NCBI GenBank assembly: GCA_024704765.1
Contig: JAKMXF010000188.1
Coordinates: 605,715 to 669,714 of the forward strand
Source of the DNA: Oopsacas minuta
Lineage: Eukaryota > Animalia > Porifera
Direction: 5' to 3'
Length of the DNA stretch: 64,000 nucleotides
Of the stretch, positions 28,847 through 52,051 are shown one piece after another. Under the pieces are notes generated by a model. That model was not told the origin of the DNA. It searched no databases and saw only the letters and a program-made list of their open reading frames with translations. Positions within the stretch are counted from its first letter, which is position 1; each line of letters opens with the position of its first letter. A program made the position numbers and the translations under genes.

Positions 28847-31800
28847 ATGTGTTATAGTGGTGTATTTGTACAGGCAGCAGATGTCATATTATCCTCTGCA
28901 CTGATAGACAGAGAAGAGATAGTTCGCTATGAGGCAACATTACAATATATTAGACATCCCAAAGCCGATGAAATGTCAGATATCCTATCTGACTATTATA
29001 ACTACACAAAGGTCCAGCAATCTCCAGCCGGAGCAACAAATCGTAGAATCAGGAGGTTTAACATATTCAATGCTTTATCGTTCCATCTACAATCTCCAAG
29101 TTTTAATTGGAGGAAACAAATTGGGAGCGATGAATTTGGTGCTTCAATGGGTCTCATTATACGTAATGTAGTGGAGCTTGATATCAAGCCATTGTCTGGA
29201 AAATTTGAGGTTGATGTTCATAATGAAGCCTATTTCGTTGCATACATTACCTATATTAATTTAAGATTTGATATCTTTCGTGCCAGGGTTTGCTTTAAGG
29301 GGTACATCGCATATAATTTTAATATTCTGCAAGAATTTGGCATTAACTCATTTAGTGATCTAGCGAACATCTACGATAGAACAATAGGCGCTGTGGTAAC
29401 ACCAATTAAACAAGCAGTGGAGAGTTTTCGAGGAGCTTATGGCGACGTAGATGTTAGTTACATATTTGATAGACTTGTGGATGCTGTTTCTGAATTACCA
29501 TTTATCATTGATAATCTCGTGGTTTCTCCAACATTACGTAGAATCCTCCAGCAGTTACAACAACTACCGTTTATCCAGAAAGGTCTCATGTTAATAGATG
29601 ATGTCAACTCATTGTATGAGGATGTAAGGAGCGATGTTTTGATGTTTTACCAAGAGATTTCTGATTGTGTAACGGTTACATTGCCTTGGGTCGGGGAAAC
29701 AGTAAAAAAATCGATCGAAACTATTGGCAAATCGATAAAAGAGTTCTTTAGAAATCCACTCACTGCAATACGTGATGTGATTGTATCTGTATTTCAGTTA
29801 AGAACTGCAATTGATGCTGTTATTGACTGTAAAGATGTTTTGATAAAATCGGCTAAATTTGAGGGAGCTCACATACGAGGTTGGATGGAGTTATTGAACC
29901 ACTTGGGTGAAATATACACTTCAACAATTGAGGCTAAAGAGCTAATTATGATGCAGGCACAAATATTTTCTGAAGCTAGAGATGCTTCTACTTTCGAACA
30001 AGCCACGGGACTCAATCTGACCATTTTACGAATCAAAGTCTATGAAGATCTGAGGGTTGCCCTTGATGAATTCATTCAGCCACTTTCATCCCTCCGAAAT
30101 ATAATAGATCCCTTTATTGTCGCTTTTGCAAACGCTATTCAATTAATCAAAAACACAATAAGTGCTTATGAGACCCTGAAAAACGCATTTGAGTTGGCTA
30201 GGAATCTTATTGAACAACTTTTCGGGCTTAAATTCGATCGAAGATTTCCAAGAAAGCTAAGAGGAGATGATGGATGTGAAGTGTCAAATTGCCAGTGCGG
30301 ATTTTACCCAACAACCTCTGGAAATCCAGATACATATAAGATACATACATATAAGCCAGGCATACAGCTTGAAGTTGTAGTTTTAAAAAGTTTGGTCGCA
30401 CCAACCAATGGGTTATATTTGCGAATCCCAGATGATCGAGTACTGATTTTTCCGTCTGGCTCACTTAAAAGATACGTTATAATGATACATCATGTAGCCT
30501 TGATGGATAATATCACATATGAAGGAATCAATGTGCAGAGTGGAGAAAAGATAGGTACTGTTACGGATACAGGATGTTACCCTAACTTTATCCATGTCAC
30601 TGTAATGACGAGATCTGGAAAACCCCTCGACCCATCTAGGTTTTTAAAACCACGTTCGTTAGTATTTCCGGAATGGATAGAAGAATGTAATGACTATAAG
30701 TTAGTTGTCCTAGGCGATGTGATTCGGGAAGGAGAGGTGATTGGAAAACCTGAAAAAGAGAAGAAGAAAGAACGTGGTAGTTGCACAGATGGAGAGGAGT
30801 GTACCGACGCGAATATAGCAAAAGGAGTCCGTCCTCCAAGAAAGAGAACCTCATATACACCAAAGCATCAACAATCCATTTCTAAGAATTCTAAAGCCAA
30901 AAGCAAGTTACTAGCAAATGCTACATCGAATGGACCGAATGGGCCCATGAACCACGAGATAGATACCGATCTGAAAGAATTCCTTACAAGGGAAGATATT
31001 GAAGAGTATTCCAACTCTGGAGATTTTAGTTTGGTCGTTGGTGGTGGAAGAGGGAAAGATTATAATTTTTCTGTAAACTCAATTATACTGGGAACACTCA
31101 TCGATGCTCTATCGGATTTAGACGATCCAGAGATAAATGAGGTAATAACAACTTTGGAAAATACCATTGACTGCATACGGGAGGCAGTTGAGTGTTCAAA
31201 TGACCAGTTAATTGATCCTTCCCTACTCGATCTCACTTCTATTAAGAGCTCCCTTAAAGTTAGAGGGTTATCCGCTGAGGGAGACAAGGAACAACTTTTG
31301 GCACGACTAATAGAGTTACCTACAGATCTCTGTCCTGATATTCAAGCTGCAATCCCAAGGAATCGTTGGTGCTCAATAAGCGACGATTGCTTGACATTGA
31401 AGTGTGCTGCAGCTCTCAAATTAGACTTCCTGTCCTATTCTGTAACATTCCAAATTACATTAGATCCATGTACTTCCTCCATCATGCTGAAATTTCAAGA
31501 CTTTGAGAGAGTTATTGATCTTCCTGCAATTTCTGGTGGTTTAGAGCTGAACATACCAATTGAGTCAGTTGATTTATTAGACATTGCTACTCTTAATTTG
31601 GGTGTGAAAATAGTACGAGATGACTTAAATATCTTTCTAAACTTCAAAGCTTATCTCTGTGCTCCAGATACGACTTCTGAAGATTATTCACATTGCTTCT
31701 TTGATATTGAACTTCTAGCTAGAGCTGTATTCAAGATTCCTAGCCCGTTCAATTGTAACTCGAATGAGAGGAAAAGAGAGACTAGAGAGATTGAAACAAG

Positions 31801-33710
31801 TGATGTGACTTCATGTGGCATACATATCCCAGATTTTAGTAATATGACCCTTGCTGAGTTTGTTACCTACATCAAAGATCTTGGGGATATAGGATCAGCT
31901 GGTGCCTCAACTACTAACATCAACCAACTTATGCAAGACCTGAGGAATGTGTTTCTGACTGATTTGTTGGATTCAATAATTAGTGGTGAGAGTACAATTT
32001 CAGGTGAAGAGACTGATTTCCCGACTACCTTTGATATTTGTGTTATGGGATCTTTTGGAGTCCAAAAAGTCAGAAACTTTTTCACCAAAGGTCGGATTGT
32101 AATTATCGGATTTGTTCCAGTGAGTTTCCTAATTAGTCTGGATGGATTTTATGGTGTTGACTTAAACCTGAAATTGTGTTTTATAACCATGGCTGCTTCT
32201 GCGGAGGTAATACCAAGAACTGGTCTAATTTTAACGGGAAGTGTTGGACTTTCGATTGCCATAGCTGAGGTTGGAGTAAAGTTAGTTGGAAGGATCCTTG
32301 ATACAAGTCTACCAATTCAGCCCACCATTGGGTTTAAAAAGTTTCCTCTAGCACTAAGAATTCGTATTGACTTGAAAATAATACCTCTGAGCATTTCTAT
32401 ACGTTTCTTTCTAAAAATCGAATTCACTTTATTATTTATTACGGTCTCGGAGACTCTTTTCGATCACGAAGTTTTTCACTGGAGCGCACCTGCCATCCTA
32501 ATCAATCTCTTAGATGTTACTAATGCTGAACAAGATGATTCTCCTCCCCTATTTTCACCAATTGCCGACTCGACGAGATCACGGCGCTCCCTAGCGACAC
32601 CTTGTGATGTGAGTCAGATTGTAGGAAGAGACTACACAGACCCAGCATTTTTTCTTCAGATAAACGTAGCAGATGACAAGAGTCAAGTAGAACTCACTTA
32701 CTCTGTGGGTACATATCCAGGAGGAAATGACGTAGTTAGAGATGATAGAATGAATGGCAATACTGTATTAATTGCTAGGCAATTACTATCCAGTATTCCT
32801 CTCTATTGGACAGCAAAGGCCTCCAACTCTCAGGGAGTGTCTGCCGCCAGTGAATGTAGTCTCCCAACTTATGATACTACTCTTCCAATTGGTCGAGTAG
32901 ATTTCATGGAGTACATATATTCCAGTCACCCGTCAATACTCATTGGAGAGACTACTATTATCGACGATACAAACTTAAAGAGACACTTACAAGCTATTGG
33001 TTATGGACTTGGTCCTTTTGGTGACCAGACAGTTGGATTCATTTCATTTGACTTCGAACCTAATACTCCCATCAGTGTGAGTGGCACGATTGAGAATTTT
33101 ATCGCAGTGTTAAACAAACGGTTAGGTGTAATACCATTCAAAGTTTCCAGTGGTAAAGAGCTCGAGGAATGTGCAACAGACTGTCTGCAATTCCCTACTA
33201 AATGCTTCTCCTTCAACTATGCACCAGTTTCTCATATATGCGAGCTACTCAATGATATTGGCGGAGATTCTAGTCTGGAATTCGCATACGATCTTCAATA
33301 CAGTTACTATGAGAAGAGGGGAGTAGGGTATCGTGCAAGTTTGAAGCATGATAACCTCCCATTAGTACACAACACACTGTACTTTCTAAATATATATCTC
33401 ATGAATGAGCTCTTGTATGAGAGGTACCTCCACTCACCAGGAATTCTCATCGACTTTACTCCACCTGAACCTGGAATGATTGTGAATGCTAGCATGAACG
33501 AGACAAGACATGATGGTTGTTCAGCTGCATTTAATCAGAGATGTGAACCTCCTCAGTATGTAACTCCACTGAAGTATCATCATGTTTTACAAGATGGCGC
33601 TGGATCTGAATGTGTGTATAATGGTCCTGTAATAGGTACTGATAAGATGTATACCAGACAGAATTCTTTCTTGAGCATAGTATTCCATGGATTTCATGAT
33701 TTAGAAAGTG
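28847..33710 (+). CDS. Giant single-pass membrane protein gene, exon 1 (4.86 kb). It holds a helical N-terminal region, a LECT2/M23-like domain, a SAP-like motif, a furin-type RSRR site, a PAN-like Cys module and the first HYR/FN3-like repeats. Its true 5' end may lie upstream
   Basis: Uninterrupted 1640-codon ORF from ATG 28847. A strong GGTGAGT donor at 33711 lies inside the repeat motif (…FHGFHDLESG|). Splicing to the acceptor at 36086 restores the canonical ESGI motif in phase. An alternative phase-0 acceptor (TTTGTACAG) at 28872–28873 exists, and there is no signal peptide after the ATG. Confidence 0.65.
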
Positions 33711-35609
33711 GTGAGTTTGCTTGTTATTATATTACTAATAGTATACCAAAAACAGTGGAACTTGCATAATCCGATACTCGTCGGGACATGAAAATAACGT
33801 CGGATTAGTAAATTGTCGGGTTACAGTGGATACCGCTTATAAGAAATTTCTATATAGCAGTATTAACAGGCTTGCCGTGGAGATGAAATATCCCAGCCAT
33901 ACTCCATATCCATATGCATTTCTGAGCCATTTTAAGTGGATATCCATAGATATTGTTAAAACCCGAGGACTGTTAGCGTTGGGTATCCGTAGATGCCCTG
34001 TTGCTTAGACTCCTTCTTGGTACAGGTTTCCTGGTGGACTTCCACTACGGTTATGCCATTCGTTTTTATCCATTTTCTGTAGGTCAAATCGTACCACACG
34101 AATGTTTTGGAACAATATCCACATTAGAGATACATCCCGTACATGTAGAATTATAGATGTAGACTTGTCCCAGAATCTTTCGATGATCACATCGCGACTG
34201 ATCTTTGGAATTCCATATATAATTTTGTAAAGTTAATCGTCAGAACTTACGATAGGAAACTACATGACTTTGTCATGATTACTCAATTAGTATAAGTTTT
34301 CAACGATTAGGTGAAAAGAAATAGTATTACAGGCGACAACCCTTAAGGAAAACATTTGTTCGAATTAGTGAAAGTTCGAACTATTACGGGTATTCGTATT
34401 CACTGCTGTTGACTGTATAATGCATATTGCCAATTATTTGCCAATTATCGTAAATATTTGGAAGTATGGACATCTACAATATCCATGGATATGACCAAAG
34501 CTCGTTTGGCTAAAATATTTTCGGATTTTAAAGGTATCCCGGATTATTTGTGACAAAAACAAATACTTCAATGTTTGTACAGGTAAACCTCTTTTTACGC
34601 GGTAGATGCGTTCAATGATGAAAAGTCCGCTTAAAAAAATATGACAATTCTCATAGAAACACATATGAATCTTTTATAGATGCTTTTCCAAATAGATATC
34701 AAAATCATTTGTTCGAGGAACTTTAAATTGGATATACAGTCGAAATCGGGGTATTTCGCCTCCCTGGGTATTATTGCAATTGCTTGTTTCTCCTTAATAC
34801 TATTTAATTACAAAACGAATTTAGTATATTTGCTACCGGTTTTTTGCGTATCGGGGTTTTTTTGCTGCCTTGATCATGTAAAAAATTGCCTCTCTGTTTC
34901 TTGCCCTCTTACAAGTGTCAAGTGATCCAAAACTCCCGATTTCGATTGCAGTTTCATTGGTCAACATTATTGAACATTGATAATTGAGTTACTATACTTA
35001 AATTATTATTTTTGTTGTCTCTGTACTACATACATTAATTCGACGGACGTAAAGACTAAGAAATTTCACCTTCTAAGCAACTATTGCTTTAGTGGTTGAA
35101 AAGGCGGTTTTTTGCCTCATTTTCCGTGCATTTTGGGGAAAAAACCGATTTCGACTGTATTTGAGAATAATGTTTGAATTCAGAATCTGGAAATAGGAAT
35201 CGTATAATTATATACGTATAATCATTTCTAGATGTTCTCATATTGTATTTATTATATCAGATAGCTTAATATTCGAATTCGTCCTTATCTTAGAGCTCAA
35301 CGAACACGTTACTTTCGAATACGAACAGTTCGTACTTCGTAACCAAGGAAAAGTTTGTCATTGATTTTTGTGTCATCAACAATATTTATGTGAATTGTTC
35401 CCTTCCAGATGCATTATTTCGTTTTTTCGATTTGAGTGTTGAAAATATTCCAAATGCTAAATCGGTTGATGCATAGTAGAAATGTTTAGCTTTGTAGCAT
35501 TTTGTGAATTAATTAATTAATGAAATTTGCAAGGCCGCGGAAAATGGAATTGTACTATAACCCAGCTGCTAAGACCTTAATATTAGGCGAATTGTTCATT
35601 TTTTGAAGA

Positions 35610-36006
35610 AAGTGACATTTTTGGTCCAGATATAGCTTATGGCATCTTAATTTGATAGGAAAGGGGACCCACTCTGGATCTTCCCTATTTCGGGAAAAAT
35701 TTCCCCAAATGTTGACATAATGGCCGCAGGGCGACAAATTTGCACTTGAATTATTCCAAAACGATTTGATGGATCGAATAGGTCAAAAAAGCAAAATTCT
35801 ATTACATTGTGCTATCTTACCAGAAAAACAGCTTTCGTGATGACTAGAAATCATTTGAGAAAGTTATACAGATATTTGAATATTCCCCCAGTGTCTGGAC
35901 ATACGGACCTTGTGGGACAATTTTTCACGAAATAGGGAAGATCCGGAGAGGGCCCCCTTTCTATGGAGTTAGGATAAAATACGCTATACCTGGACCAAAA
36001 ATGGCA
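35610..36006. repeat. MITE-like inverted-repeat structure within intron 1 of the giant gene
   Basis: Arms about 35610–35700 and 35917–36006 (TGACATTTTTGGTCCAGATATAGC… / …GCTATACCTGGACCAAAAATGGCA), about 85% complementary, with an about 215-bp spacer. Confidence 0.6.
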
Positions 36007-36086
36007 CTTTCATCAAATAAATGAATAATTTTAAGCTTAAGCAGCTGGACTACAAGTATAATAATGTGAATTGAGAATTTAAATAG

Positions 36087-36402
36087 GTATCTACGCCTAC
36101 ACATGGTACATGGATTATGAGATTTGTGAGGATAATGTGATTACGCCTAGAGATCCCAATGAACACTCCACGACACCTCTCTCTGATATAAATCAGGGTA
36201 GAATATTTCAACATTTTGATGACGGGACATATTACGTGACAGTTCAGGCACTGAACAAGGTGATACTTGGTGGATCTGGTGTTCTCACTGTCTGTCATTC
36301 TACACCTTATACTATTGATACATCTCCGCCAGTCATTAGCAGAGTCATTCTCATTTCATACAATTCTAACACAAATCTATCTATCTTCGTGTATCAAGCT
36401 TG
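36087..36402 (+). CDS. Giant gene exon 2
   Basis: Acceptor AAATAG at 36085–36086. Phase (1+2) gives …DLESG-IYAYTWYMDYE…GTYYVTVQALNKV…DTSPPV…. GTAAGT donor at 36403. Confidence 0.55.
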
Positions 36403-36810
36403 GTAAGTATAATAGTGTAATATAATTGAAGCTTAACTGTCTGGCTTTACCAACGGGCCAAGCAAAAACTATTGTGTCGACAATTGATCCTGCAATAGCC
36501 GGACGGACCGAACTGAATCCTCCAGCCTTGGACTTGCAGATTGCTGAGTATCATTGTTTGTCCTTTTGAGGTATTGGAATACCAAGAATATTATTTCGGA
36601 TTACTTGTCCAATATTTTGTATGGCAATGAAAATTAGATTCATAGTAAAGTGTCAAATTTGTATCTATTTTTTACAAAATTTCATGTATACCCTCAAGAG
36701 TTGTGACATACAACTAGAGGTGAAATGTCCTTAAATTTGTTCAAATTATTTCGTCGTTTCTATTTACACTACGTATATGTTCATGATTTTATACCTTACT
36801 TCTCCTTGAG

Positions 36811-37019
36811 GGATGTTGAGTCAGGTTTGAAGGCTATTGAGTTGGGAGCAGGTCTTACACCTAATGACATTTCTATACTCCTTTGGACTCCAATATTCGT
36901 CAATCAGACAGCTACAATCACTTATCGTATTGATGTAGCAGATGGACAGAGGGCCTTCATTCGTATTAAAGCAACTAATAATGGTAATAATGGTATAGTA
37001 CTAATTAAATCAACATCCG
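36811..37019 (+). CDS. Giant gene exon 3
   Basis: Acceptor TCTCCTTGAG at 36809–36810, phase (2+1), giving W-DVESGLKAIELGAGLTPND… (repeat motif). Donor G|GTTACT at 37020, chosen by phase; this is a weak site. Confidence 0.45.
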
Positions 37020-37170
37020 GTTACTCGAATGCTCGTTAACTCGAACGAATATTCACTCCCCATTGTTGTATATTTAATACTTATCGCACCGTTAACTCGA
37101 ATGGATTTTGACTTCCCCTGAGGTTCGAGTTACCGAATGTTGACTGCATACAGTAATTATATTCTACATT

Positions 37171-37826
37171 TAGTTGATCTCGAAAGTGCCTCCTACGCTC
37201 CAGAACCGATCATTGTTGATCGTAGCCCTCCCATTCCAGGAGTCGTGCTTGACGGAGATGGGTTCGGATTATCAGACTTCAAATACCAATCTTCTGCCTC
37301 AAAGATTTGTGCAAAATGGAAAAACTTCTTTGATCCTCAATCAGGAGTCTCTGCTTATCGTTGGGGAGTAGGCACTGCTCCTGGGATGTCAAACATTGTA
37401 GCTTTTACAGAAGATCTTCCCTCTGACCAGAATGATATCTGTAGAGATGGTTTGACACTCCAACATAACACCACGTACTACTCAACTATAATAGCATTCA
37501 ATGCTGATACTCATCAGCCTAAAAACTCATCTGCTTCTTCCAATGGTGTCCTTGTAGATCTAACAAATCCAATTGGTGGCTATGTTCTTGATGGTCTAGA
37601 AATTACCAACACTATACACTACACTTCCAATCCTACCTTAGTGCAAGCAGTGTGGGGAAACTTCTCAGATCCGGAGTCTGGTATTTCTCAGTATAACGTT
37701 ACTATTTACGTTGCCAATGTATTGCAGTTTTTGCCAGCTACCAATCTTGAACCAGATCAAGAATGTCAGATTACATCTACCAACACAATAGTCCCTACAA
37801 GACAGCATTTTATACCCCCCAGTGAT
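37171..37826 (+). CDS. Giant gene exon 4
   Basis: Acceptor CTACATTTAG at 37169–37170. The exon encodes VDLESASYAPEPIIVDRSPPIPGVVLDGDG…WKNFFDPQSGVSAYRWGVGTAPG…WGNFSDPESGISQYNVTI…. GTAAGT donor at 37827, phase 0. Confidence 0.55.
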
Positions 37827-38454
37827 GTAAGTAATATCTATTATGCTGTAAACAGGGCCGTCGTGGGGTGGTTGGGGGTGTGTGTCAGGGTATATACTTG
37901 GATGCCGCTTCGTAATGGTGCAAACATGTTGTAGGCGCCTCTGTTCGAGCTATCGATGCGCATTGATGACACTTTCATTCATACGACGGTCTTGATGTTA
38001 GGTTATAATCTTAGTGGGTTAACTCATGGGCGTAAACGAGCAAATCGGGCCGCGATTTGACACCAAAAGACATTATTTTGAGTCTAAGAGTTGGAATCTG
38101 TTCAATGTTGAATGTTAGATATAATACAGCAAAAATTTCAAATTTAATTCCGAGTAGGCCTCTGGGCCGCCCGAACATTTTCGGGTGCCCGGGTCGTTTA
38201 CGACTAAGGGTTAACTATCAGTATACTGAAATGAATCGTAGAATACTTGTGTTTTCGTGTTTTTATCTTCAGAAGGATATAAATTGGATTAAATACCACC
38301 AATCTCGTCCGTAAAGAAATTTCTGCTCGATTTTATCTAATGTCTCCACACATAGGCTTGATAGAGCCATTTTGGGTGGGCGGCTGCCCACTCTGACTCG
38401 GGAGCTTAGTTGCGCTAATGTTTCCACAGACTTAAACATTTCAATACATATTTA

Positions 38455-38605
38455 GGTTGAGTTTAGGATAGCACAAGAATCATTGTCTGTTGGCTTAGAA
38501 CATCAAATCCACTACAAACACTTTCATTTCTCTCACGGTGAATACATAAGGACAAGAGTTACAGGACAGGATGGTGCCACAAGATTAACTGAAGTCACTA
38601 GTCAA
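38455..38605 (+). CDS. Giant gene exon 5 (not in the ORF track; found by phase)
   Basis: Acceptor ATATTTAG at 38453–38454. 50 open codons VEFRIAQESLSVGLEHQIHYKHFHFSHGEYIRTRVTGQDGATRLTEVTSQ+G. Donor G|GTATAT at 38606. This exon restores the phase between exons 4 and 6. Confidence 0.5.
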
Positions 38606-38853
38606 GGTATATTATATTACCATATTTCCTTGAATAGTAGCCTGGTCGATTAGTAATTTCAACCCTCTTATGAGGGAAGTTATGATCTTTCTATACACGT
38701 AATGTCTTTATCATCATCCCTATGTAATACGAACCAACCGCTTGTAACTGTTTCCCTGGATTTTTAAAAAATTTTGGATTTCTAATATTTTTCAGAGGAT
38801 GCAGTGTTTATATGATTCGTACTAGTATTTAACTAATGAATTATGGCTTTTAG

Positions 38854-39308
38854 GTGTTTTAGTCGACTTAACACCACCTAAGATAGTCCAGCTCTACGAT
38901 GGTGCTAATTTCGGGATAGACGAGTCATACCAAACATCCATTACAGTACTACATGCATCTTGGATAATGGTGGACAAGGAATCTGGAATTTCAGAATATC
39001 AACTATCAATATATGCCAGGAGTCAAGGCTCAACCTCTAAATTCTATCCAGAGGATGCTCCCTACATTACTTTGCAGCCACAAGAAATTGGAGAATCAGG
39101 TATTCTTAACTGCTGGACTGGTAGAGACATTCCGTTGAGCATTGGTACACTCTATACTGTGAGAATTGTCCCAGTGAACCGAGCCAAACTCTCTACTATC
39201 TACACGTCAAACGGGATAATTCCAGACAATACACCACCTGTAATTGATTTTGTACACATTGGTACATATGGTGATGAGTCTGAAGAAATAACTCCTCAAG
39301 AAAATGCG
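38854..39308 (+). CDS. Giant gene exon 6
   Basis: Acceptor GGCTTTTAG at 38852–38853. The exon encodes GVLVDLTPPKIVQLYDG…WIMVDKESGISEYQLSIYARSQG…. GTAAGT donor at 39309, phase 0. Confidence 0.55.
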
Positions 39309-40945: not shown

Positions 40946-43900
40946 CAATACTGGTGGACTGGACTAAACCTAATCTGATACTAACAGAGTTAGGACAGCA
41001 AATTGATGGAGTAACTTATAAGTATCCTCAATCTGATGACAAGATATATCAATACGACCCATCTACACTTGTAGCTAGATGGAGTGCTACAGATCCTCAA
41101 AGTGGTATTAACAACATACAATATCACGTGGGCACTTATCCCTATACTGCTAATATACAGCTGCCAAAACTTACTCGTGGAACTAGTCTAGCCTCAAATG
41201 ATGTGGAACCAGAAAACACAGGAGAGCCGAACATACTCCATCTCATAGCATTCAACAAGGCAGGTGTATCCACATTCCTTATCGCCCCTGGTATCACTAT
41301 AGATACACTTATCCCCAATACTGACCAATTACGATTCACATGTACCCAGTACGCTGTCACCACCACTAGTTCATTGGTATGTAATTGGTATGGAGCATTT
41401 GATGAATACAGTGAGGTCAATGGCTATGAAATAATGTTGGGAGAGGAGGAAATAGATACAACCTTCTATTACGAATACTTGGATAGAAATGCCATTACGG
41501 TGACCATCAGGAATTTCACCAAACCACTAGAAGTAGGTGATCAGGTGTACACACTGAATGTTATTAACAGTGTACGACTGAGTAATCATGCGTTTGCTCC
41601 TTTAACAATTGATGATTCTCCTCCCATTCCTCAGTCTGTATTCGTATTGACTGATCAAACACAAGTTGCCTTCTTTCCTACTGGTGAAGTTAACTCTACG
41701 TTCAATTACGAGAATGCAACGTCATCTGGAGTTCAGTGTAAGATTATCGTCACAGATATTCATATTAGATGGGAGGATTTCGTTGACCACGAGACTCCTA
41801 TGGATTTTTATGAGATTGGGATTGGAGAAAAGCGAGGACAAATGAACATTGTGAGCTTCTTCAACGTGGGTTTAGTGAACGAGTACTTTATTGAAGGGTT
41901 AGACCTGACGCGTTATAAAGTCATATATGCAATTATTCGAGGAACCAATCGAGTCGGCCTGATCCAAGCGGCGAATTCCAATCCTATCTATTTGTCGTTA
42001 CGATACCCCGATCCTGGATACGTGTATGACGGCTCTGAATTCCAAGACTTAGAGGCTCAGGCTGGTATCACCTTTCTAGAAGGTTATTGGAATTTCAATG
42101 ACCCTTGCCCTGCAGTGCACTATGACTGGGCAATATTCTATATGAACCAAACAACCATTCAGAACTTTACACGTGTTGAAACTAGCCACTCCTCGAACGA
42201 TAACCTTGCAATGCAACAAGATACCAAGGTTTATATCAGCGTAACAGTTTACAGTTCTATTGGTTATGTGAGATCTTCTCGGTCTAATGGTATCACTATT
42301 CAAGTTGATCCTCTTATCCCAGGAGTAGTGTATGATGGTCCTGTCCCTGGATATGATTTTGACAGTCAAGCATCCTTGACTTCCATAATTGCCAATTGGA
42401 ATTCATTTGGAGGTACTGATCCAGAGAGACTCTCAGAAATGGTTATTCAATATGAAATAGCAGTAGGGACGGGGTGGAGAGGTGAGGACAGATTCAACGT
42501 TGTGGAGTATGAGAATATGTATCTGAACACTTCTGCAACGCTAAGAGGACTTGAACTGCAAAGAAATACCTCTTATTACGTCACAATTAGAGGTACAAGT
42601 GGCACCTTCCAACAGGCAGAGGCAACTTCTAATGGAATACAACCGATAGAATTCAATAATATTGCTGAACCAGGTTCTGTAGAGATCCCTTCATTCCAAT
42701 CTGCCACAACACTGCTTGACATCACTTGGAAAGATTTCACCTCATTACTTCCTATTGCATTCTATGAATACGCAATCAGTACTGATGGAAATCTCGCCGA
42801 GTTTTCTTGTGAGACTGTGGAGAACGCTGCTGACCCTCTCGACGAGTACTTCACTGTTAGACAGTACACTAGAGCTGTATTACAAGCTTCAGTGGTTGCG
42901 GATAATTTGCATCTAGTAGGAGCTACCAAATACTACGCTTATGTGCGTGCAATTGATAATTCATTTCAGTGTACAGCTGCTGTCTCCCATCCAATAGTTA
43001 TAGACACTACACCGCCTATTCAGGGCAAATTCAATATAGGATTCAATGTTACTAGTGTACGACCTGAATTAACTGAAACTCAGATCTATTATATAACCGG
43101 AAATGATACTCTAGCTGTTCATTGGGAAGGTTTCTTCGATCCAGAGAGTTATATATCCAACTACCAGATCGCAATCATTGAACAAGATAACTGCAATATT
43201 CACAATTGTGATGAGATAAGTGATTTGACAGAATTTACTACGATTAACAATGTGAACAATTATACATTCTATGTCATCCAACTTGTGACAAGTAAATTCT
43301 ACTTTGTGGCTTTACGTTCTATCAACCAAGCAGCACTCACATCATGTAGCGTGTCACAGCCTATCAAACTGGTAAAATACTCTCTCAATCCAGCAGTAGT
43401 TAAGTACGGAACAATCTGGAAATTTTCTCCTCCTTACCAAGGGAGTACCTCTAGGGTTGAAGGTGTTCTAGCTCTTGTGAGGACAAAGCATGATGCTGTG
43501 TGTATGGAACGTATGTATAATCAAAGTTCCACGACAGAAGATTGGGACACAATCACTCAGTCAATCACTTCTACAATCCCAGTAGGACCTAGCAATCCAA
43601 CAGGCAGAACTCTAATGTATCACCCTCAACAGATAGAATTCACTACTGACAGTGCATTTTTAAAGGTCAGCATGACGCGAGACATCCAACGTGAGAGGAT
43701 GCTCTCTGGTGCTGCTGTCACACAGATGTCAGTAGTAGACCTGAATGAAATGAGTGTTAGCATCAAGGCTGCCCCTGAATTCCAGGCCGTCACTTCTGTG
43801 TTATTCTGGGACGGACCTGCTTCAATGGTTCAGGAATATGAGATGCTTTATGAACTGGAAAACGTCACACAAACTAACTTCGGCCAAAATCTACCAACAC

Positions 43901-46170
43901 AAACACCCAGTACATGTCAATACATGCCTCCTCCCAACCCCAACCCAGTACCCTACAAAGCGTTTGGTCTCCAACTACACCCCTCTTACAATTCCAGCCC
44001 TGCGAGAGCTTTATTCTGGTACAGAGGTCAGACTCCTGAAGACACTGGGTACACATGGATAGATCTAGACTATGATCCTAGTGCTGCCTTCTACACGTAT
44101 GACTTTAAACTCTACAGAACCAGTTCAACTACTCCTAGTACAGCTACACTTGGCACCTGGACTGTGGATTTAGTGGTAGACGGCCAGTTCTTAGGCAATC
44201 TTGTTGATCTGCCTCAACTGAGATCTAGTATCTACCTTGTATTACATGTCCGGAACTTTAACGGAGGAGTAGAGTCGTTCTCAAATCCCTTCTTTCCTCC
44301 TACTACCTCGGCCTATTTCACTGATGTCAATCTTCCAGCTGATAGCAGTCGGGTTTGCAAATTTGGAGCACCATTCTATAGCCCAAAGGCACCATTTGTG
44401 AAGTTTGAGGTTGGAGTAGGACGAGAGTATGGTTCTACTGAGGTATCTCTTGCAGCGGGTCGAGAATATCAGTCTATACCCTCACCATGTATTCCTTGTG
44501 TTGAAGGCTGCAACAACTCACTACCCAATCTGTGTAACTCTACATGCAATTCCAACGTCTACTATATACAGTTTGTAGCCAGTGGGCTCAGTTTGCAATC
44601 AGGTTGTACTCATCCGTTTAACCTTACTAACGTGACATGTACTCCCTACAACTATACTGACACAGGTATTCCAGAGGATCAACTATACCAATACAATATC
44701 ACATTTGTACCATATGTGTACTATATGAAGGTGAGAGGATACACGGCTACAGGAGAGATAGCTTACGGCTACTCAGATGGTATTCAGCTAGATACAACAC
44801 CTCCTAACTGTACACTTATACAACATGTACAAAGAGATCTGAGAAGTGATCAGTTAATACAAACGAGTGCTCAGGATAGTGACAATTCACTGGCTGTGGA
44901 ATATCAGTGTGAAGACACCAAAAGTGACATATATGACTATGAAATAGCTTACTCGGATAATGTAACTGATATTGATTCTCTCCAATTCACTTCAGTGGGC
45001 ACAATCAAAACCGCGAATATAACCAATCTCGAGCTGATACCACAACTCAAGTACTATGTGATTGTTAGAGCCATCAATGGTGCTGGTTTGAGTACAATAC
45101 TGGTAAGTCAGGGAGTGAGGATTATGAACCAGGAGCCGGACATTTCTAAATCTGTCATAGAACCTTTGTATTCAACAAAGATCGATACAATAATTCCAAA
45201 TACTTTCCTATCTACACAACTTACTTCTCTCGGTTTGCATTGGACTGGTTTCTATCCTACTCATTATGAAGATAATTACCTTGTAAAGAATCAAACTATT
45301 TTCTGGAAAGTAGGCACAGAACCTTACAAGGATGACATCATGCCCATTTTCGAGATAACATTCGGCAATGCTTCCTCCATTCGTATTGAAGGATCTCAAT
45401 TAATTGGTAATGGTAACTCAAACGATCAAGTTATTGCAAATACTCCTGATATAATAATGTTGGCGAATAAATCAGCAGGTATTTATACCGGGAGTGAAAA
45501 TATCTTACAAGCAGAACCTGGAATGATTTTGTATCAAACTCTCGTACTCTGTGCTATTCAACCTAAATGCAAAGATGCTGGCACACCATCAGTTACTTAT
45601 TATAGAGATACTACTGATACATATGCTGTGTACCAACGTAATAGTGAATATTACCTTTCTATTGAGGAAGGCTTTGCTGAATATTCTTCTGGATTTTCTG
45701 GCCAATTCATCCCTCAACTAATCTATCCAACCAACTGTAAAGTTTACTTCTCTGAAGACCTGCAAGATTTATCTGGATTTGTCATTGGACCCCTCTCACT
45801 CAGTGATATGAAGGTTAATTATGACATCCTCTCTGTCCCTTTCAGCTCTCCGTATACGCGTTACATTGTGGATCCTGGCTCCACCCTCACCCAAGTGGAC
45901 AGATTTCTCTTCACCCGTATACAAGAGTTCCACGGTCCCTCTTTCTACATAAGTCCTATAGGCGGAGTTAACTTCCCTTCTTGGTTGAAGATTGAAATAA
46001 AATTTAATGCATCTCGAATTGTTGAAACAAATCAACCATTTCTTGTTGGTTGGAACCCTGAGCAACAGCAATGGGTATCTTCTCGTAGCAGTTGTAACTT
46101 CGATAAAGAGGATACTATAACTGGTGATACACTGACAACGTATTTCTGTCCTTGTCTGCTATCTAATGAG
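40946..46170 (+). CDS. Giant gene exon 8 (5.2 kb; about 15 tandem HYR/FN3-like repeats)
   Basis: Acceptor TGTTTCTAG at 40944–40945, phase (1+2). Continuous 1741-codon frame. Each repeat unit has D.(T/S)PP..G.V.DG, then about 30 aa, then W.(G/N)F.D.ESGI..Y...(I/V)GT.PG, then about 50 aa, then YY.TVRA.N.AGL.S…S.G. Donor GAG|GTTTGT at 46171, followed by a SINE-like R2 repeat in the intron. Confidence 0.6.
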
Positions 46171-46189
46171 GTTTGTTTTTCTAATAAAT

Positions 46190-46440
46190 ATAATTGTTGG
46201 TTGTCTGTTTGTCAGTTGTCAAGGACAGGGTTTATGGTATGTTAGTCAAGATCAGATTTTTGCATTTTCAAATAAATTGTGCCATACGTAAATATATTGT
46301 TACTGTATTAATTAATGATATGAATATGGTGCAAACAATATCGCAATTCCTCAAACTTTACTAAGAGACTTTAAATTATGGGTTACATTGGGGTAACAAG
46401 GTACGCTGGATCAAATTTTTAGTGCAGCTCCTATAGGGAG
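46190..46440 (+). repeat. SINE-like dispersed repeat family R2 (…CAAGGTACGCTGGATCAAATTTT…)
   Basis: Related copies at 48720–49080, 50480–50560 and 55950–56300. All but the last lie in introns of the giant gene. Confidence 0.6.
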
Positions 46441-46630
46441 ATGCCCTAATGGCATGGACGATGTACGGAGGCAGTGCGAAATCTAGCGGTCCCATTAAAT
46501 GAAAATTAGTGTACATATAGATACATTTGGATCGGATATTTTGCCCTTTTGGGGATGAACTTTTCTAAAGTGATTTTTTCCCATCTTTTTGGTGATTAAT
46601 CATATTTTCACACCTTTTTACACATATAGT
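46430..46630 (-). repeat. R1 tail module, inverted copy
   Basis: Reverse complement of 28340–28560. Confidence 0.6.
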
Positions 46631-47803
46631 AGTCTCATTAATACGAACACGGTTAAGACATAAATCCAGTTAAGGAGTACGAATTTAGCAGTCCCCTGGT
46701 GAAAGTATTAACAAGACTCTACTGTATTTCAAAATGATGCTAGAACTTTCGTTTCAACTTCCAGTTAGGGGTACAATACATCCTCACTAATCCAGACAGC
46801 ACTGTTCCTATTACTAGATTAGCGAAATGCTCGGAAACGATACTATAGGATATAGGGGACATTTTTTCGAAAGTTATACAAACGATGAAGGCTGCAAACA
46901 TGTGTAATATAACAATATGTATTTGTCCACACTACAATTGGATACAATTAGTTATTTTTGAACATTTTAAGACATTTTCCAGGAGATAAATAATTATCCC
47001 TTCGGATCTATTCGGATTAATGATGATTCGGCTTAACGAGAGTCTACTGTAAGAGAGCATGTTTTTTCTATTATGATATTTTCATGTTCATACTTTTAGC
47101 ATATTACTAAAAATAATGCTAGAAATTCGTTTGAACGGGTAGTTAGGTGTTCAAACGAATTTATAGCATCATTTTTGAGTAATATGCTATATTGAAATCC
47201 AATTTTGATTTTTTCAAATCTCAATCTACACGATTTATCATACAATTAGTCTTATTTCTACCAATTTACAACAAATATTTTGTATTGGGTAGGGATGTGA
47301 CAAGGGCGGCGGAAGGTGTTAGGTGGCGGTCAGGCTTGATCTATATTAAAGTGGTCAGGCCCGTGCCATAGAATTGAGTAGGACAAGGCAAAAGTAGTCA
47401 ATACAATATCTATTATTCATTTATTGTTGTTTTTATGGACTCTTACTCAGAAGTATTACAATATTAGCATGATTCCGGTTGCGTCACCTATACCGAGATT
47501 CGGTCTAATCAATTTTGTCGTTCGCTAATGTTAGTCAATTCAAATTTCATAAAAGTATTTATACTTTGCATATACGTATTATGCTATACGCATTAATACT
47601 TGTACAGCGGAAACCCCTATTAGAAATTCGTCTAATAGCAAAATCCGCCTATTAACAAATTTTTCATGGACAAAGAGTCCAGTTTTGTATCGTAATTAGT
47701 ATGTATAATAGCTAAATTCGGGTATTAGTTGGAAAATTCTTGCAAAATTCGATTGCTATTAGGTGATTGCAATTGTATGTAATATGTATCCAATATTCTA
47801 TAG

Positions 47804-48131
47804 CGTTGTAACAAGCCCTGGCAGTTTATATTAGTAGTGGGGAGTGCTACATTTGATGATACTCCTCCCATACCAGATCAAGTCCCGTGTATCAGCATTG
47901 GAGAAGGTTCGGTAACCATTCAGCATCTCATCACCTACACAGACATAGAACATGACACTGTGAATATCAGTCTGACATCTGTCACATTCACACGAGCTTC
48001 TTCTGAGTACTCTCTTGCTGAAGATGGGACAAGTTTATTGAATGCTGAAATAAATGGAAACATATTTTACTTCACTCCTTGTAGTGGTTGTTATGGCAAC
48101 CTATCCGTGCAGTACTCACTAACAGAGACAG
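47804..48131 (+). CDS. Giant gene exon 9
   Basis: Acceptor TCCAATATTCTATAG at 47802–47803, phase 0. The exon encodes …SATFDDTPPIPDQVPCISIGEG…. Donor AG|GTAATC at 48132, phase 1. Confidence 0.5.
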
Positions 48132-48719
48132 GTAATCCAATGTATATGTTGCTTGTACAGGAATATATACCTCGAACGATCTGTATCACTTTTGTCTATT
48201 AGCTAAATTAAATATATTTCAGAGTTGGAAAAAATCAAACAAAATCAGATTATTTCGAGTGGGTTTACACACCCTTATTTTGCCAATTATTTAAACCAAT
48301 CTACAGTAAACTCTCGTTGTACTGAAGTGCTGGGAGCCTCGGTTTCATTTCATTATGATCGGAGTTTGTTGTAACCTGAGTACGTTAATGCACAATTGTT
48401 TGTAAAATAATGTCAATAATAGCGGAAGTCTTTTATCTAAGTTCGTTAAATCCGGAGTTTATGTAATAAAATATCAATTTGAGCGGTATTAGTTCAACTG
48501 GGGTTGTTATCAGCGGATTTCGTTATAACGAGATGAAATTCAATAGCTTTTGACATAAAGGGGATAACAAATAACTTGGTTATAAGCAGAATTTCGTTGT
48601 ATCCTTCCATGTATTTGTTATAAACGAAGTTTTATAATGTAATTAGATGGAAGGATTTAGGACCATTAGACCACTTCGTGATAACGGGAGTTTACTGTAT
48701 ATTATCAAATTGCCATTTT

Positions 48720-49080
48720 TGCCTGTTTGTTTGTTTGTCTATTTGTCCGTTGTCAAAGAAAGGATTTATGGAATGTTGTATCGAATTCGAATTTCTCAAT
48801 ATGAGATGTTGCATAACTATGTATTTATCGTTTATACCAAAAGTAAACAGAATTCAATATAACTTAACTAAATAAATCGAATGTGCTGAATCTGATTTCC
48901 ACACTTTTGAATTAGTCATATGTAAATTTATTGTTATTTTATGAATAGAAAGAAAATAATTTCTTGAGATGCCACAATAATAGTAGAGACTTGCTCTTAA
49001 CTGCTACAATGGCTTAACAAAGTACGCTGAATCCGAATTTCGCATTTTCAAGTTTTCATATTTGTGATCTAGGAAATTCT
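48720..49080 (+). repeat. R2 SINE-like repeat copy
   Basis: About 80% identical to 55950–56300 over about 350 bp. Confidence 0.65.
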
Positions 49081-49109
49081 TTGATTCTATATACATATAT
49101 TCCCATCAG

Positions 49110-49320
49110 GTACTCCTTCATTACTTGGCACTCCATTGTATGCAGATAATGAATTCCTCATCGAGATACTATCAGTTAATGAAAATCCTAAACTAATGAT
49201 AGACCAGGAAAATGTCAATTCCCTCATTACTCTATACAGGACAGATAATACCTCAGTAGTTACCCTACAACTCACAGGATATAGTTATGATGTGGATGAT
49301 GGAGATTATGTGTATTTCAG
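49110..49320 (+). CDS. Giant gene exon 10
   Basis: Acceptor TTCCCATCAG at 49108–49109, phase (1+2). GTAAGA donor at 49321. Confidence 0.55.
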
Positions 49321-49402
49321 GTAAGATAATTCAGCATTTGAAATATGAAATCAAATTAATATTGCATACCAGAATGAGTATTGTCATTTAATACTTCCTC
49401 AG

Positions 49403-49649
49403 GTATCTAAACTGTTCATACTGTAAACTAGTAGTGAGCGAGATTTCTCCCTCTTCCAACCCAAACATATCTGCTCAATACACAACTTCAAGTAGAAATT
49501 TCTCTCTTAACTACACAGCTCTAGCGTACTACTATGGGACAGACCAATTTGGAATTGTATCATTGGACAGATTTGGTGCATTCTCTCTAGCTTACATTAT
49601 AGTAATCTCTATAAGATTTAAACCCTGTCTTAATGACGCAACTTGTAAG
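49403..49649 (+). CDS. Giant gene exon 11 (ends at the start of EGF module 1)
   Basis: Acceptor ACTTCCTCAG at 49401–49402, phase (2+1); 82-bp intron. The exon encodes …FKPCLNDATCK. GTATGT donor at 49650. Confidence 0.55.
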
Positions 49650-49764: not shown

Positions 49765-50111
49765 GGCCCAAATAATGATCCTGATTGTAGCAAAATTATT
49801 GAAATCGAAGACTTCTCCAGTGAGTATTCATGTGAGTGTACGGAAGAATGGGCACTGAGGAGATGTGATAAACCCAATCTCTGTCTCTCTCAGCCCTGTC
49901 ACTATAACGCCACCTGTCAGATTAAAGAGAATGGAGATTATGAGTGTTTATGTGAACCTGGATGGCGTTGTTCTCAGATCTTAACTCCAGGAGAAATATC
50001 TGCTGTCGTATTATCAATTGTGATTATTCTGCTAATTATAGCAGTTGTGAGTCTTATAGTGTGCGTCTATCTTATGCAGAAAAGGAAGGGAGTGTACAAT
50101 ATCGGGATTGC
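49765..50111 (+). CDS. Giant gene exon 12: rest of EGF-1, EGF-2, transmembrane helix and stop-transfer
   Basis: Acceptor TTTTCATTTAG at 49763–49764. The exon encodes GPNNDPDCSKIIEIEDFSSEYSCECTEEWALRRCDKPNLCLSQPCHYNATCQIKENGDYECLCEPGWRCSQ…ISAVVLSIVIILLIIAVVSLIVCVYLMQKRKG…. GTAAGT donor at 50112. Confidence 0.65.
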
Positions 50112-50871: not shown

Positions 50872-51924
50872 AGTGGCACTTGGCGTCCGATTTGATTAGT
50901 AAAGGGGAGAAGCACTCCCGACGAATATCTTCAATATTTCTCACATCATATATCACCTTAATTCTATCCAGTTTTCGCTGCAGGGCTTTCACGGAGAAAA
51001 AAAATATAGGCACCCATTTCAATACTGAGCCACTATACTAAAGTATAGTTGGCACAATATCAATAACCCTGAGCTGCACTGCTAGTCTGTCGACTGGACA
51101 TTTTTATTTTAATTCTGTCTATTAACCAATAACTTTCGACTACTAGCCATTACTCTAAAGTCTAAAAACAGAGACTAATTATGTCATGTACGTATTTAGT
51201 TTGTTAAATGAAAATATATACAGTGGAAACCGGCTAATAGCAAATCGTATTTTTGTAAGAATTTTCCTTTACTAATATAACGCGAATTTTGCTATTATGC
51301 ACACTAATAACTATACAAATCTGCACTCTATGTCCATGAAAAAAGTTGCTAATATGCGGATTTTGCTATCAGACGAATTGTTGATAGGCGGTTTCGAATG
51401 TAATTGTCTCACTAGCAACACAATTCACATCTGAGAGAGAATTACCATTTCTATCATACAAAAAATACATTTTTGTACTAACTTAAATAAATGTGTTATA
51501 TGCGTGTCATGGCCAGCAGTAGTAATCATATATTATGTATCCACTATTTGAGCGTATATACGAATACAGTCGACCCTCTGACATCCGGTCACCTACTTAA
51601 ATCGGGTAGGATTTATTGAATCGTTTCAAACTGTTTGATCATTTTCTGGTAAATTTCCTCATAATATAGTTGATTTTAGCTGTGCGTATTATTACTATTT
51701 TCAAGTCAAGTACGTTTTCAGCCTTCACAAACTCTGAAAATATCATATCTATATCTATTCCATTCCGTAATGAAACCCATCTCAAATTTGGGATAATAAA
51801 CTATTTCTGAGATTCAGTCAAATTCTAAACTCCGGACACCTCTGGAAGACACTGCCCGAATTTCGGAGGTTCGGCTATTTTACCAAGACTACGTATACAT
51901 GTTTTGATCTAATGTCTCTTTTAG

Positions 51925-52051
51925 GCAAAGAAATAATATAATAATTGCAAACCCTGCAATTGTACAATTAGAAGAGGTTCGAGCTCGAGTGGATGTAACT
52001 GAAGATGCCTTAGTTATCGAGTCCCCATTCATAGAAGAAACGATTCTCTGA
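51925..52051 (+). CDS. Giant gene terminal exon (cytoplasmic tail, TGA stop 52049–52051)
   Basis: Acceptor TGTCTCTTTTAG at 51923–51924, in phase with exon 12 (2+1). 42 open codons AQRNNIIIANPAIVQLEEVRARVDVTEDALVIESPFIEETIL*. The summed CDS is 13,746 nt, which is divisible by 3. Confidence 0.45.

Follow-up and report, generated by a model that had tools for sequence, protein, structure and literature searches.

A giant sponge gene predicted to encode a membrane-anchored relative of the vitellogenin-type lipid transfer proteins

A single, very large gene lies in a 64,000-nucleotide stretch of DNA from a hexactinellid (glass) sponge, positions 605,715 to 669,714 of the forward strand of contig JAKMXF010000188.1 (GenBank assembly GCA_024704765.1); this whole stretch is called the window below, and coordinates are counted from its first letter. 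The coding span runs on the + strand from 14915 to 52051, that is, over 37,137 bp of genomic DNA, and its 20 exons join to a coding sequence of 15,312 nt that specifies 5,103 amino acids (aa) and a stop. All 19 introns are of the GT-AG type, and the joined exons form one open frame with a single terminal stop. By sequence comparison, the product is the orthologue in sponges of an opisthokont protein of about 5,000 aa, which is ancient and conserved but unstudied. These statements on the gene and its orthology are made with high confidence. The locus thus supplies a homology-supported gene model for a giant, apparently membrane-tethered relative of the large lipid transfer proteins (LLTPs), with which it shares its head; LLTPs such as vitellogenin, apoB, MTP and the apolipophorins are regarded as soluble lipid carriers of animals. 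The account developed below, in which the locus encodes a binding head held on a long stalk, is, taken as a whole, probably the best explanation of the data.

The gene and its limits

That the gene is real follows from the length of its frames, which is far beyond chance. In DNA of 36% G+C, where a stop occurs about every 16 codons, the frames of two giant exons run on for 1,612 and 1,741 codons, with chance probabilities of ~1e-46 and ~1e-50 per start, respectively. To place the splice junctions, all GT/GC-AG combinations near each pair of high-scoring segment pairs (HSPs) were scored against homologues. A contig of another glass sponge (ENA ERZ25069837, hereafter L001), ~70% identical at the protein level, shows the exon blocks of this gene as well.

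A first-pass annotation of this DNA had described a gene of 13 exons and about 4,580 aa that starts at 28847. The large multi-exon gene stands, and it is one gene, but its start does not: the ATG at 28847 is intronic, exon 8 begins at the acceptor at 28874 (best junction 22635|28874), and the true start is an ATG at 14915, 14 kb upstream, which adds seven exons worth 544 residues. To these seven exons LOD99_10427, an annotated protein of the glass sponge Oopsacas minuta, aligns with its first 520 residues, back to ~14987. What had been missed is the 5' third of the head, with a signal peptide and a vitellogenin-type domain; if the signal peptide were lacking, the ectodomain modules, rich in disulfides, would have no way to the surface.

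Exon 1 (14915..15034), located by tblastn with LOD99_10427, holds the start codon and encodes the signal peptide, after which the LLTP N-sheet begins, and ends at a GTAAGC donor; the N-sheet goes on in exons 2 (15280..15545) and 3 (15615..15788). Exons 2 to 5, including exon 4 (18396..18502, for which the alternative acceptor 18378 scored lower) and exon 5 (20088..20326), were fixed by junction scoring against P0010 of the LOD99_10427/LOD99_10426 set (P0010, P0024). The LLTP helical subdomain occupies exon 6 (20537..21051) and, with HEAT-like sequence, exon 7 (22425..22635), the latter placed by junction scoring. Exon 6 is kept as one exon, open throughout; an intron 20806/20879 within it, suggested by the Oopsacas model, was dropped, as the frame is open and the 26-aa segment that the Oopsacas model lacks is present in other orthologues.

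Exon 8 (28874..33710), the first exon of the earlier model, is the first of the two giants. It contains the end of the LLTP domain, a furin-type site, a beta and helical region, a LECT2/M23-like domain, a SAP-like motif, LLTP-like beta-sheets, a second furin-type site, the first fibronectin type III (FN3)-like repeats and a PAN domain. Exon 9 (36087..36402) follows, with junctions 33710|36087 and 36402|36811 best by homology and the same exon in L001. Exon 10 (36811..36983) also has the best homology score, and its junction 36983|37174 supplants an earlier 37019|37171. The donor at 36983 can be regarded as settled, because conservation with L001 stops exactly at ...ATNN|GT and reading through exon 10 beyond this point meets a stop in L001. 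Exon 11 (37174..37826) had previously been started at 37171, a position without an AG. Exon 12 (38456..38606) is bridged to both its neighbors by an oyster protein (P0033), and homology together with L001 supports exons 13 (38854..39308) and 14 (39423..40032). The second giant, exon 15 (40946..46170; 5,225 nt), encodes FN3-like repeats, a GH16-like domain, another two FN3 domains and the greater part of a domain of unassigned fold. Exons 16 (47804..48131), 17 (49110..49320) and 18 (49403..49649) again rest on homology and L001, and in the L001 alignment exons 18 and 19 form a single HSP. Exon 19 (49765..50111) carries the second EGF module, the transmembrane (TM) helix and the start of the tail, whose end and stop codon lie in exon 20 (51925..52051). 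The last intron, 50111/51925, is plausible: it has a GTAAGT donor and a pyrimidine-rich acceptor and keeps the frame. An alternative junction 50093/51931 scores marginally better against Oopsacas, exon 20 resembles the Oopsacas tail weakly, and the tail encoded by this exon was undetectable in L001.

Much of the first-pass model survives in this scheme: 21 of its 26 exon ends and nine of its introns are exact, its summed coding sequence of 13,746 nt is correct for the exons it listed, and the three repeat residues that it saw rebuilt across splice points, ES[G]I, A[W]D and Q[G]V, are indeed there. What failed, besides the first-exon start, were ends of its exons 3, 4 and 5, and with them the statements that only GT/AG sites had been used and that every exon phase was reconciled. 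Position 37171 follows TT, 38455 follows TA and 38605 precedes GG; its fifth exon, 38455-38605, is shifted by one base at both ends relative to our exon 12, so that the model, read literally, has five internal stops, all in that exon (38458-38599).

Could the locus be something other than one intact gene? The Oopsacas minuta annotation has two adjacent genes, LOD99_10427 with the vitellogenin and PAN part and LOD99_10426 with the FN3, EGF and TM part, and these two NCBI models align to 15277-38584 and 38967-50103 of the window, which would put a gene boundary near 38606/38854. This boundary, however, is intron 12, which cuts an FN3-like repeat and splits the codon of its conserved Gly, restored by splicing; LOD99_10426 begins inside a repeat, at an internal Met, and lacks a signal peptide; the oyster protein is continuous over the split point; and six other lineages have single proteins, of 4,640-5,363 aa, that continue collinearly past this point. 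Two genes are thus very improbable, and the split is regarded as an annotation artefact. Scarcely more credible is a transcript that starts near 28847 from an internal promoter in intron 7 and yields an N-terminally truncated isoform of 4,580 aa. The ATG at 28847 does lie in the frame of exon 8, and this frame has no stop from 28808 onward, but similarity to Oopsacas begins at the acceptor 28874 and runs on into exon 7, the nine extra codons before 28874 are not conserved, and the upstream LLTP domain is present in all orthologues; moreover, such an isoform would have no signal peptide despite its EGF, PAN and FN3 modules and 52 N-glycosylation sequons. As for the idea that the gene is decaying into a pseudogene or that unrelated fragments were joined in assembly, a reading for which no positive support was found, it is the most remote of the three: 5,103 codons are intact in DNA with so many chance stops, the splice sites are canonical, and the order of parts is the same in orthologues of other phyla and in the second sponge contig.

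The Oopsacas annotation also omits the exon 6 segment of 26 aa kept in other orthologues, and both features of it look like annotation errors. The corrected model, for its part, exposes the splitting of one gene into two.

Domain content of the product

The protein opens with a signal peptide of typical type (aa 1-20, MVLQQILILLLVFSPTLTVS, encoded from 14915), and its N-terminus, M-x-LQQ followed by a hydrophobic run, is common to the Oopsacas protein. Next comes the vitellogenin-type module. Pfam Vitellogenin_N matches with 41.1 bits against a cutoff of 24 and, together with HEAT_2, covers aa 317-582, while a profile built from nine species over the first ~610 residues aligns its positions 30-543 to residues 2-503 of lipovitellin (1LSH_A; E=3.9e-6). 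Because of this match and the collinear 1LSH alignment, both the N-sheet and the alpha-helical subdomain of LLTPs are, on sequence grounds, present. The same Pfam model finds the orthologues of Capsaspora (59.6 bits) and of two chytrids (48 and 24.3 bits), as well as an unnamed holozoan-like protein (73.4 bits).

Like the gene itself, all features described here are read from the + strand. Directly after the LLTP helical subdomain lies a furin-type site, RRIRR (aa 601-605, 29042..29056), which has the form R-x-[KR]-R in all animal orthologues and HRERR in Capsaspora. A second one, RSRR (aa 1779-1782, 32576..32587), stands just ahead of the FN3-like array; it is kept in sponges, molluscs and amphioxus and absent in Saccoglossus, Capsaspora and the chytrid. 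The earlier description of a conserved furin site was therefore correct except in number. The helical region of about 480 aa with which its protein began does not hold together as one unit: it is made up of the tail of the LLTP helical subdomain, the first furin-type site, a beta segment and a helical region.

At aa ~1010-1150 (30269..30691), a profile search against the PDB points to a degenerate LECT2/peptidase-M23-like domain, as had been proposed from the sequence at first reading. Pfam Peptidase_M23 gives only 13-14 bits against a cutoff of 28.7; with an 11-sequence profile, 16 of the 21 PDB matches listed have the M23 fold, the best with E-values of 0.0017-0.005, and they include PrgK, LECT2 (5b0h, E=0.005; 9non), SpoIIQ, LytM, lysostaphin and DipM. 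The zinc site is eroded. In the glass sponge it reads K-P-G-I-Q and F-I-H-V, so that the first His and the Asp are gone and HxH is down to one His; H-x-G-V-D is intact only in amphioxus, and the Asp is kept in most animals and is Gln in glass sponges. With the zinc and catalytic residues lost, the domain is predicted to be non-catalytic.

A SAP-like helix-extended-helix motif follows at aa 1335-1358 (31244..31315). Its Pfam SAP score of 15.6 bits stays below the cutoff of 23.9, as does that of an amphioxus paralogue (19.4 bits), which UniProt names "SAP domain-containing protein"; the SAP domains 2kvu and 2rno are among three listed PDB matches, at E~1 only. The motif claimed earlier may thus be retained as a weakly supported resemblance. 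Between the M23-like domain and this motif, the linker of aa 1165-1250 (window 30734-30991) is of low complexity and rich in Lys, Ser and Pro (KPEKEKKKERGSC...KRTSYTPKHQQSISKNSKAKSK), and its basic clusters could be extra protease sites.

The remainder of the head consists of two beta-sheet regions, aa 1376-1498 and 1598-1760, with helices between them (31367..32521). An AlphaFold2 (AF2) model of aa 1255-1795 has a mean predicted local distance difference test score (pLDDT) of 68, ~80 in the sheets, and a predicted TM-score (pTM) of 0.41; it shows, in order, helices, a Cys-rich sheet at 1376-1498, helices and eight antiparallel strands of ~25 residues at 1598-1760. Compared by Foldseek with 350,542 PDB chains, the model finds MTP first (6i7s, E=2.5e-4, probability 0.96), MTP again and bee vitellogenin (9ens); lipovitellin 1lsh is twelfth in the same list (probability 0.75). 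In LLTPs the A- and C-sheets form a lipid-binding cavity that is wrapped by the helical subdomain (PMC12214520). Since the Foldseek matches and the independent evidence from the N-terminal sequence both point to the LLTP superfamily, the model suggests that aa 1376-1760 are probably A/C-type lipid sheets, split from the helical subdomain by a large insertion.

Beyond the second furin-type site the protein becomes a stalk. An array of ~16 FN3-type repeats extends over aa 1784-3753 (32591..43377; exons 8-15), with the signature W..F.D..SGI..Y, which is the usual FN3 B-C motif. An iterated self-profile collects 17 repeat copies, one of which lacks its N-terminal half at the place where the PAN domain sits, and one or two more divergent copies are visible by eye (after the second furin-type site and around aa 4370-4420). 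Searched against the PDB, a profile of 15 copies finds FN3 domains only (titin, 1.5e-14; the FN3 domain of MID2, 6e-7), with further matches to contactin, Dscam, neogenin and fibronectin. The beta-sandwich repeats of the first-pass annotation are thus of FN3 type, and there are ~18-20 of them in total rather than the at least 25 it had counted; most are below the Pfam cutoff and have long insertions. A bacterial protein, a multi-Ig/FN3 surface protein of 2,749 aa from an Acidimicrobiia bacterium (P0031), matches window positions 40948-46170 with E=1e-120 and 26% identity over 44% of the exon, so that this divergent subtype of FN3 is also present in long arrays of bacteria.

The PAN/apple domain at aa 1968-2025 (33143..33316) is borne out by Pfam, with 27.2 bits for PAN_1 against a cutoff of 21.4, and the scallop orthologue also has a significant match (22.2 bits). 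From the sequence, it is apparently nested in an FN3-like repeat, with the N-terminal half before it and the C-terminal half right after it.

Next in line, at aa ~3754-4140 (43378..44538), is a region that resembles a GH16/ConA-like jelly roll with a Pro-rich insertion. It has no Pfam match, and the assignment comes from a profile of eight orthologues: the five best PDB matches are all GH16 lichenases, with E-values from 0.0015 (3wvj) to 0.0097, and more GH16 entries appear up to E 0.52. The motifs of the family are seen in two collinear stretches, ...Y.V.(i/m)KAA....(i/v)(t/s)S...GP and L.FD.s...H.Y......W...vDG. The segment that corresponds to ExDxE reads GP.....EYEML in the sponge and DYEIL, GFDMP or DFDTW in orthologues, and the acid/base Glu is not conserved. 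A non-catalytic GH16/ConA-like domain is therefore a probable, if tentative, assignment. Here an AF2 model, computed for aa 3745-4684, is of low confidence (mean pLDDT 46.5).

Two further FN3 domains at aa ~4141-4340 (44539..45138) include the clearest copies in the protein, with 41.3 bits for Pfam fn3 and a match to the self-profile. They are followed by a conserved domain of ~350 aa (aa 4341-4690, 45139..47821; end of exon 15 and start of exon 16) that ends in ...TLTTYFCPC. This domain is kept in the sponge, amphioxus, abalone and scallop orthologues and has no Pfam match and no PDB match by profile search; its ending led us to consider an autoproteolytic module of the GAIN/GPS-like or SEA-like kind, and no evidence for either was found. 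The next region, aa ~4700-4940 (47849..49631; exons 16-18), is Ig/cadherin-like, of the Big_9/Cadherin_5 type: the Cadherin_4 match is sub-threshold in the sponge, and Big_9/Cadherin_5 is significant at the same position in the Saccoglossus and scallop orthologues. The EGF modules expected from the first reading are present, the first known by its cysteine pattern only and the second at the Pfam threshold (EGF, 21.7 bits against 21.5).

Apart from the signal peptide, a hydropathy scan finds one strongly hydrophobic segment, the TM helix at aa 5027-5047 (50005-50067). The single TM helix of the earlier description is thus in place; its cytoplasmic tail has 56 residues and not 45. The ectodomain contains 52 N-glycosylation sequons, and the protein as a whole 95 cysteines. 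From these features the product is predicted to be a single-pass type I membrane protein. The known families of sponge surface proteins include the aggregation factors; membership in such a family was set aside because the Pfam scans, which were not aimed at it, showed no Calx-beta or related domains.

An unnamed family and the surroundings of the locus

How widespread is this protein? Close relatives of exon 8, at 50-67% identity, are found in a dozen unannotated contigs and in Oopsacas minuta, whose LOD99_10427 (2,527 aa) has Pfam matches to Vitellogenin_N and PAN; more distant ones in Mytilus, Patiria and Branchiostoma go under the name "vitellogenin domain-containing". A profile of the helical and M23 regions, run exhaustively with HMMER, returned 672 representative proteins at E<1e-3, 197 of them at E<1e-10. 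Taxonomic naming covered 30 clusters, a small part of the 672 matches.

Orthology is supported by collinearity over almost the full length. The protein XP_078620548 of Branchiostoma (LOC144887293; 5,363 aa) aligns in one BLASTP HSP over aa 111-4980, with 27.7% identity and 1,788 bits, and that of Haliotis asinina (XP_067664253; 5,123 aa) is collinear over aa 1-4768. Chains of 2,800-4,770 collinear residues connect the sponge protein with the remaining members, among them those of Ylistrum balloti (XP_060074374; 4,640 aa), Saccoglossus kowalevskii (XP_006820036; 4,932 aa), Capsaspora owczarzaki (KJE92161, CAOG_009637; 4,741 aa) and the chytrids Spizellomyces punctatus (SPPG_08216; 5,053 aa) and Geranomyces variabilis (KAJ3164071; 5,052 aa). 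Other members come from Haliotis rubra, crinoids, Pecten, Argopecten, Batillaria and Potamilus, and there are several amphioxus paralogues. The family, which has no name, thus spans chytrid fungi, Capsaspora, sponges, molluscs, echinoderms, hemichordates and amphioxus. Its entries are all annotated as "uncharacterized" or "hypothetical", and many of them are, to judge from their sequences, fragments.

It follows that the combination of domains, thought unprecedented when this DNA was first read, has collinear counterparts of 4,640-5,363 aa in several phyla. The companion statement, that no family with this architecture is known, is not borne out either, as the family was already in the databases; a full-text search, locus tags included, found no paper on it, although absence from the searched library is no proof of absence from the literature.

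Two sets of sequences stand beside these orthologues. Amphioxus has many paralogous or fragmentary models (LOC118405867, LOC118410558, LOC109464305, Bbelb_053470 and others), which suggests a lineage-specific expansion. In a group of ENA contigs (P0042-P0056), open reading frames (ORFs) of ~2,000 aa begin with a homologue of the beta region of aa ~1620-1770 and continue with FN3 repeats, neither an LLTP nor an M23 part being visible within the ORF; they may represent paralogues or, in other animals, single large exons of genes of this kind.

As for the surroundings of the gene, intron 7 (6.2 kb) contains two ORFs on the minus strand (24372-25939), one of which (24372-24884) has a hAT-family C-terminal dimerisation domain (46 bits); they are probably the remnant of a transposon, which would explain the size of the intron. 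Downstream, also on the minus strand, are a Sec20-domain ORF (57210-57872; 50.5 bits) and a single-ORF Integrator subunit 5 gene of 959 aa (58342-61221; INTS5_N and INTS5_C). These two genes bound the locus on its 3' side and indicate that the sequence is from an animal. Two other long ORFs, 5977-7662 (minus strand, 561 aa) and 54783-55862 (plus strand, 359 aa), have no Pfam match and could each be a gene, a transposon or chance.

Possible function and comparison with known systems

What would such a protein do? The arrangement of its parts suggests the following course of events. The protein would enter the secretory pathway, where proprotein convertases would cut it at one or both RxxR sites, and it would be displayed as a type I protein of the plasma membrane. 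Its head of ~1,750 aa would be an elaborated LLTP lipid-binding module, and the dead M23, PAN and GH16-like domains would serve for binding only. The FN3 stalk would act as a spacer that holds the head tens of nanometers from the membrane, ~60-70 nm at 3.5-4 nm per FN3 domain, and the whole would bind or capture ligands of lipidic or glycan nature outside the cell, be they particles, microbes or matrix, without enzymatic activity. Once cleaved, the head might stay attached non-covalently or be shed. Several module types of this sort serve the recognition of microbial patterns elsewhere, as in vitellogenin and the beta-glucan recognition proteins, and by this analogy a recognition or uptake receptor would be an attractive role. 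The specific mechanism, with a head that binds lipid or glycan, is nonetheless put forward as a tentative proposal that may well prove wrong.

A number of points weigh against this interpretation. The M23 and GH16 assignments rest on marginal E-values (5e-3 and 1.5e-3), and the AF2 model behind the LLTP-type sheets is only moderately confident (pLDDT 68, pTM 0.41). Exon 20 is the least certain exon of the gene. At the threshold used, the TM helix went undetected in the Branchiostoma, Haliotis, Capsaspora and chytrid models, and only the proteins of the sponge, the scallop and the acorn worm yielded one at the C-terminus; membrane anchoring may therefore not be universal in this family of ~5,000-aa proteins. 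Splicing, cleavage and surface location are all predicted from sequence, and a lipid or a glycan is a proposed ligand.

Two other functions deserve attention. The protein might be mainly structural and serve adhesion or the anchoring of matrix, its LLTP, M23 and GH16-like modules being protein-protein scaffolds that bind neither lipid nor glycan. An FN3 array, EGF modules, a cadherin-like region, a PAN domain and a single TM helix are typical of adhesion molecules, and every enzyme-like module appears catalytically dead; on the other hand, the LLTP-like head, cavity-type sheets included, is conserved from chytrids to amphioxus, which argues for conserved ligand binding, and chytrids and Capsaspora are not known to have an animal-type matrix. 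Such a role is possible, though we think it rather unlikely. Alternatively, the membrane form might be a precursor from which furin frees a soluble lipoprotein or signaling factor resembling vitellogenin or LECT2, so that the FN3 stalk would be a leftover or have a separate role. Two conserved RxxR sites bracket the head; known LLTPs (vitellogenin and apoLp-II/I) are cleaved by convertases and secreted, and LECT2 is a secreted factor. In vitellogenins, separate chains arise by cleavage events (PMC12214520). The second site, however, is missing in Saccoglossus, Capsaspora and the chytrid, so that release there cannot have been the ancestral mechanism, and the stalk of ~3,300 aa is as strongly conserved as the head; we consider a precursor of this kind improbable.

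Returning to the tethered binding head, its distribution raises an evolutionary question: when did such a protein arise? The sequences are consistent with a complete LLTP module, with LECT2-like and SAP-like domains inserted and an FN3 stalk attached, that already existed in the ancestor of fungi and animals, is membrane-anchored in the sponge, scallop and acorn-worm proteins at least, and disappeared later from the vertebrates, the ecdysozoans and most fungi. Among the 30 named clusters, which are a small part of the matches, members from vertebrates, ecdysozoans (arthropods and nematodes), cnidarians and Dikarya appear to be absent. We regard this history, with all its parts, as a serious possibility that falls short of being probable. 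If it is true, lipid binding of the LLTP type first arose at the cell surface, in unicellular opisthokonts, and yolk and circulatory lipid transport came afterwards; in the same way, if the head truly forms a lipid cavity, the family bears on the origin of lipoprotein-type lipid binding before yolk or blood. Experiments are within reach. Spizellomyces is transformable. Genome editing is available in Capsaspora (PMC9170242). The two organisms together make the function of the family experimentally accessible.

Compared with the other members of its family, the sponge protein is of similar size and follows one module order throughout: an LLTP N-domain and a helical region come first, then the M23-like domain, the beta-sheets and the FN3 array, and last a C-terminal region. 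Along thousands of residues, 21-28% identity links it to the non-sponge members; to other glass sponges the figure is 59-70%. The differences are that the second furin-type site and the PAN domain are not universal, that the Capsaspora protein has extra EGF_3/EGF_CA modules and a somatomedin-B-like end, and that the M23 Asp of other animal members is lost in glass sponges.

Its individual modules recall proteins of very different kinds. With LECT2 and the M23 peptidases LytM and lysostaphin it may share a fold, to judge from the profile matches, in which the G-x-D and I-H-x motifs take part and an N-terminal Cys segment aligns with LECT2 (5b0h, 9non); the zinc residues are lost, and the module is part of a giant protein instead of a free, chemokine-like protein of ~130 aa or a bacterial endopeptidase. 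The likeness to GH16 beta-glucanases consists of two collinear stretches with hallmark motifs at E 1.5e-3, whereas a long Pro-rich insertion and an E-x-D-x-E that is not conserved set the sponge domain apart; non-catalytic derivatives of GH16, such as the invertebrate beta-1,3-glucan recognition proteins, may be comparable. In overall build, the protein resembles the giant FN3-rich type I surface proteins of animals, such as usherin and receptors of the sidekick/Dscam type: a long tandem FN3 array, EGF or Ig-like modules near the membrane, one TM helix and a short tail. Unlike them, it has no laminin or Ig modules at its N-terminus, where its head is an LLTP module, and its FN3 units are divergent.

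There remains the comparison with the LLTPs themselves (vitellogenin/lipovitellin, apolipophorin II/I, apoB and MTP). The N-sheet and alpha-helical module are homologous, the modelled long beta-sheets of the sponge protein resemble the lipid-cavity sheets of MTP and vitellogenin, and an RxxR site follows the helical subdomain; insect Vg and apoLp-II/I are cut by convertases. The known LLTPs are soluble, either secreted or ER-lumenal carriers, whereas the sponge protein is predicted to be TM-anchored through its FN3/EGF stalk of ~3,300 aa, and a soluble head would require cleavage by furin. About 770 aa (helical region, LECT2-like and SAP-like parts) separate its helical subdomain from its sheets, and it has no vWD domain and no Pfam match to the DUF1943/DUF1944 sheet models. 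A 2025 paper on the structure of bee vitellogenin links the emergence of LLTPs to animal multicellularity and describes them as the circulatory lipid carriers of animals (PMC12214520); the family of the sponge protein is also found in chytrid fungi and a filasterean. By its N-terminal module, the protein is, as the alignments indicate, a member of the LLTP superfamily, and its family looks like an undescribed, pre-animal and surface-tethered variant of it. In its predicted membrane anchor, its FN3/EGF stalk, its LECT2-like and SAP-like insertions and its occurrence outside animals, it departs from every LLTP class described so far.

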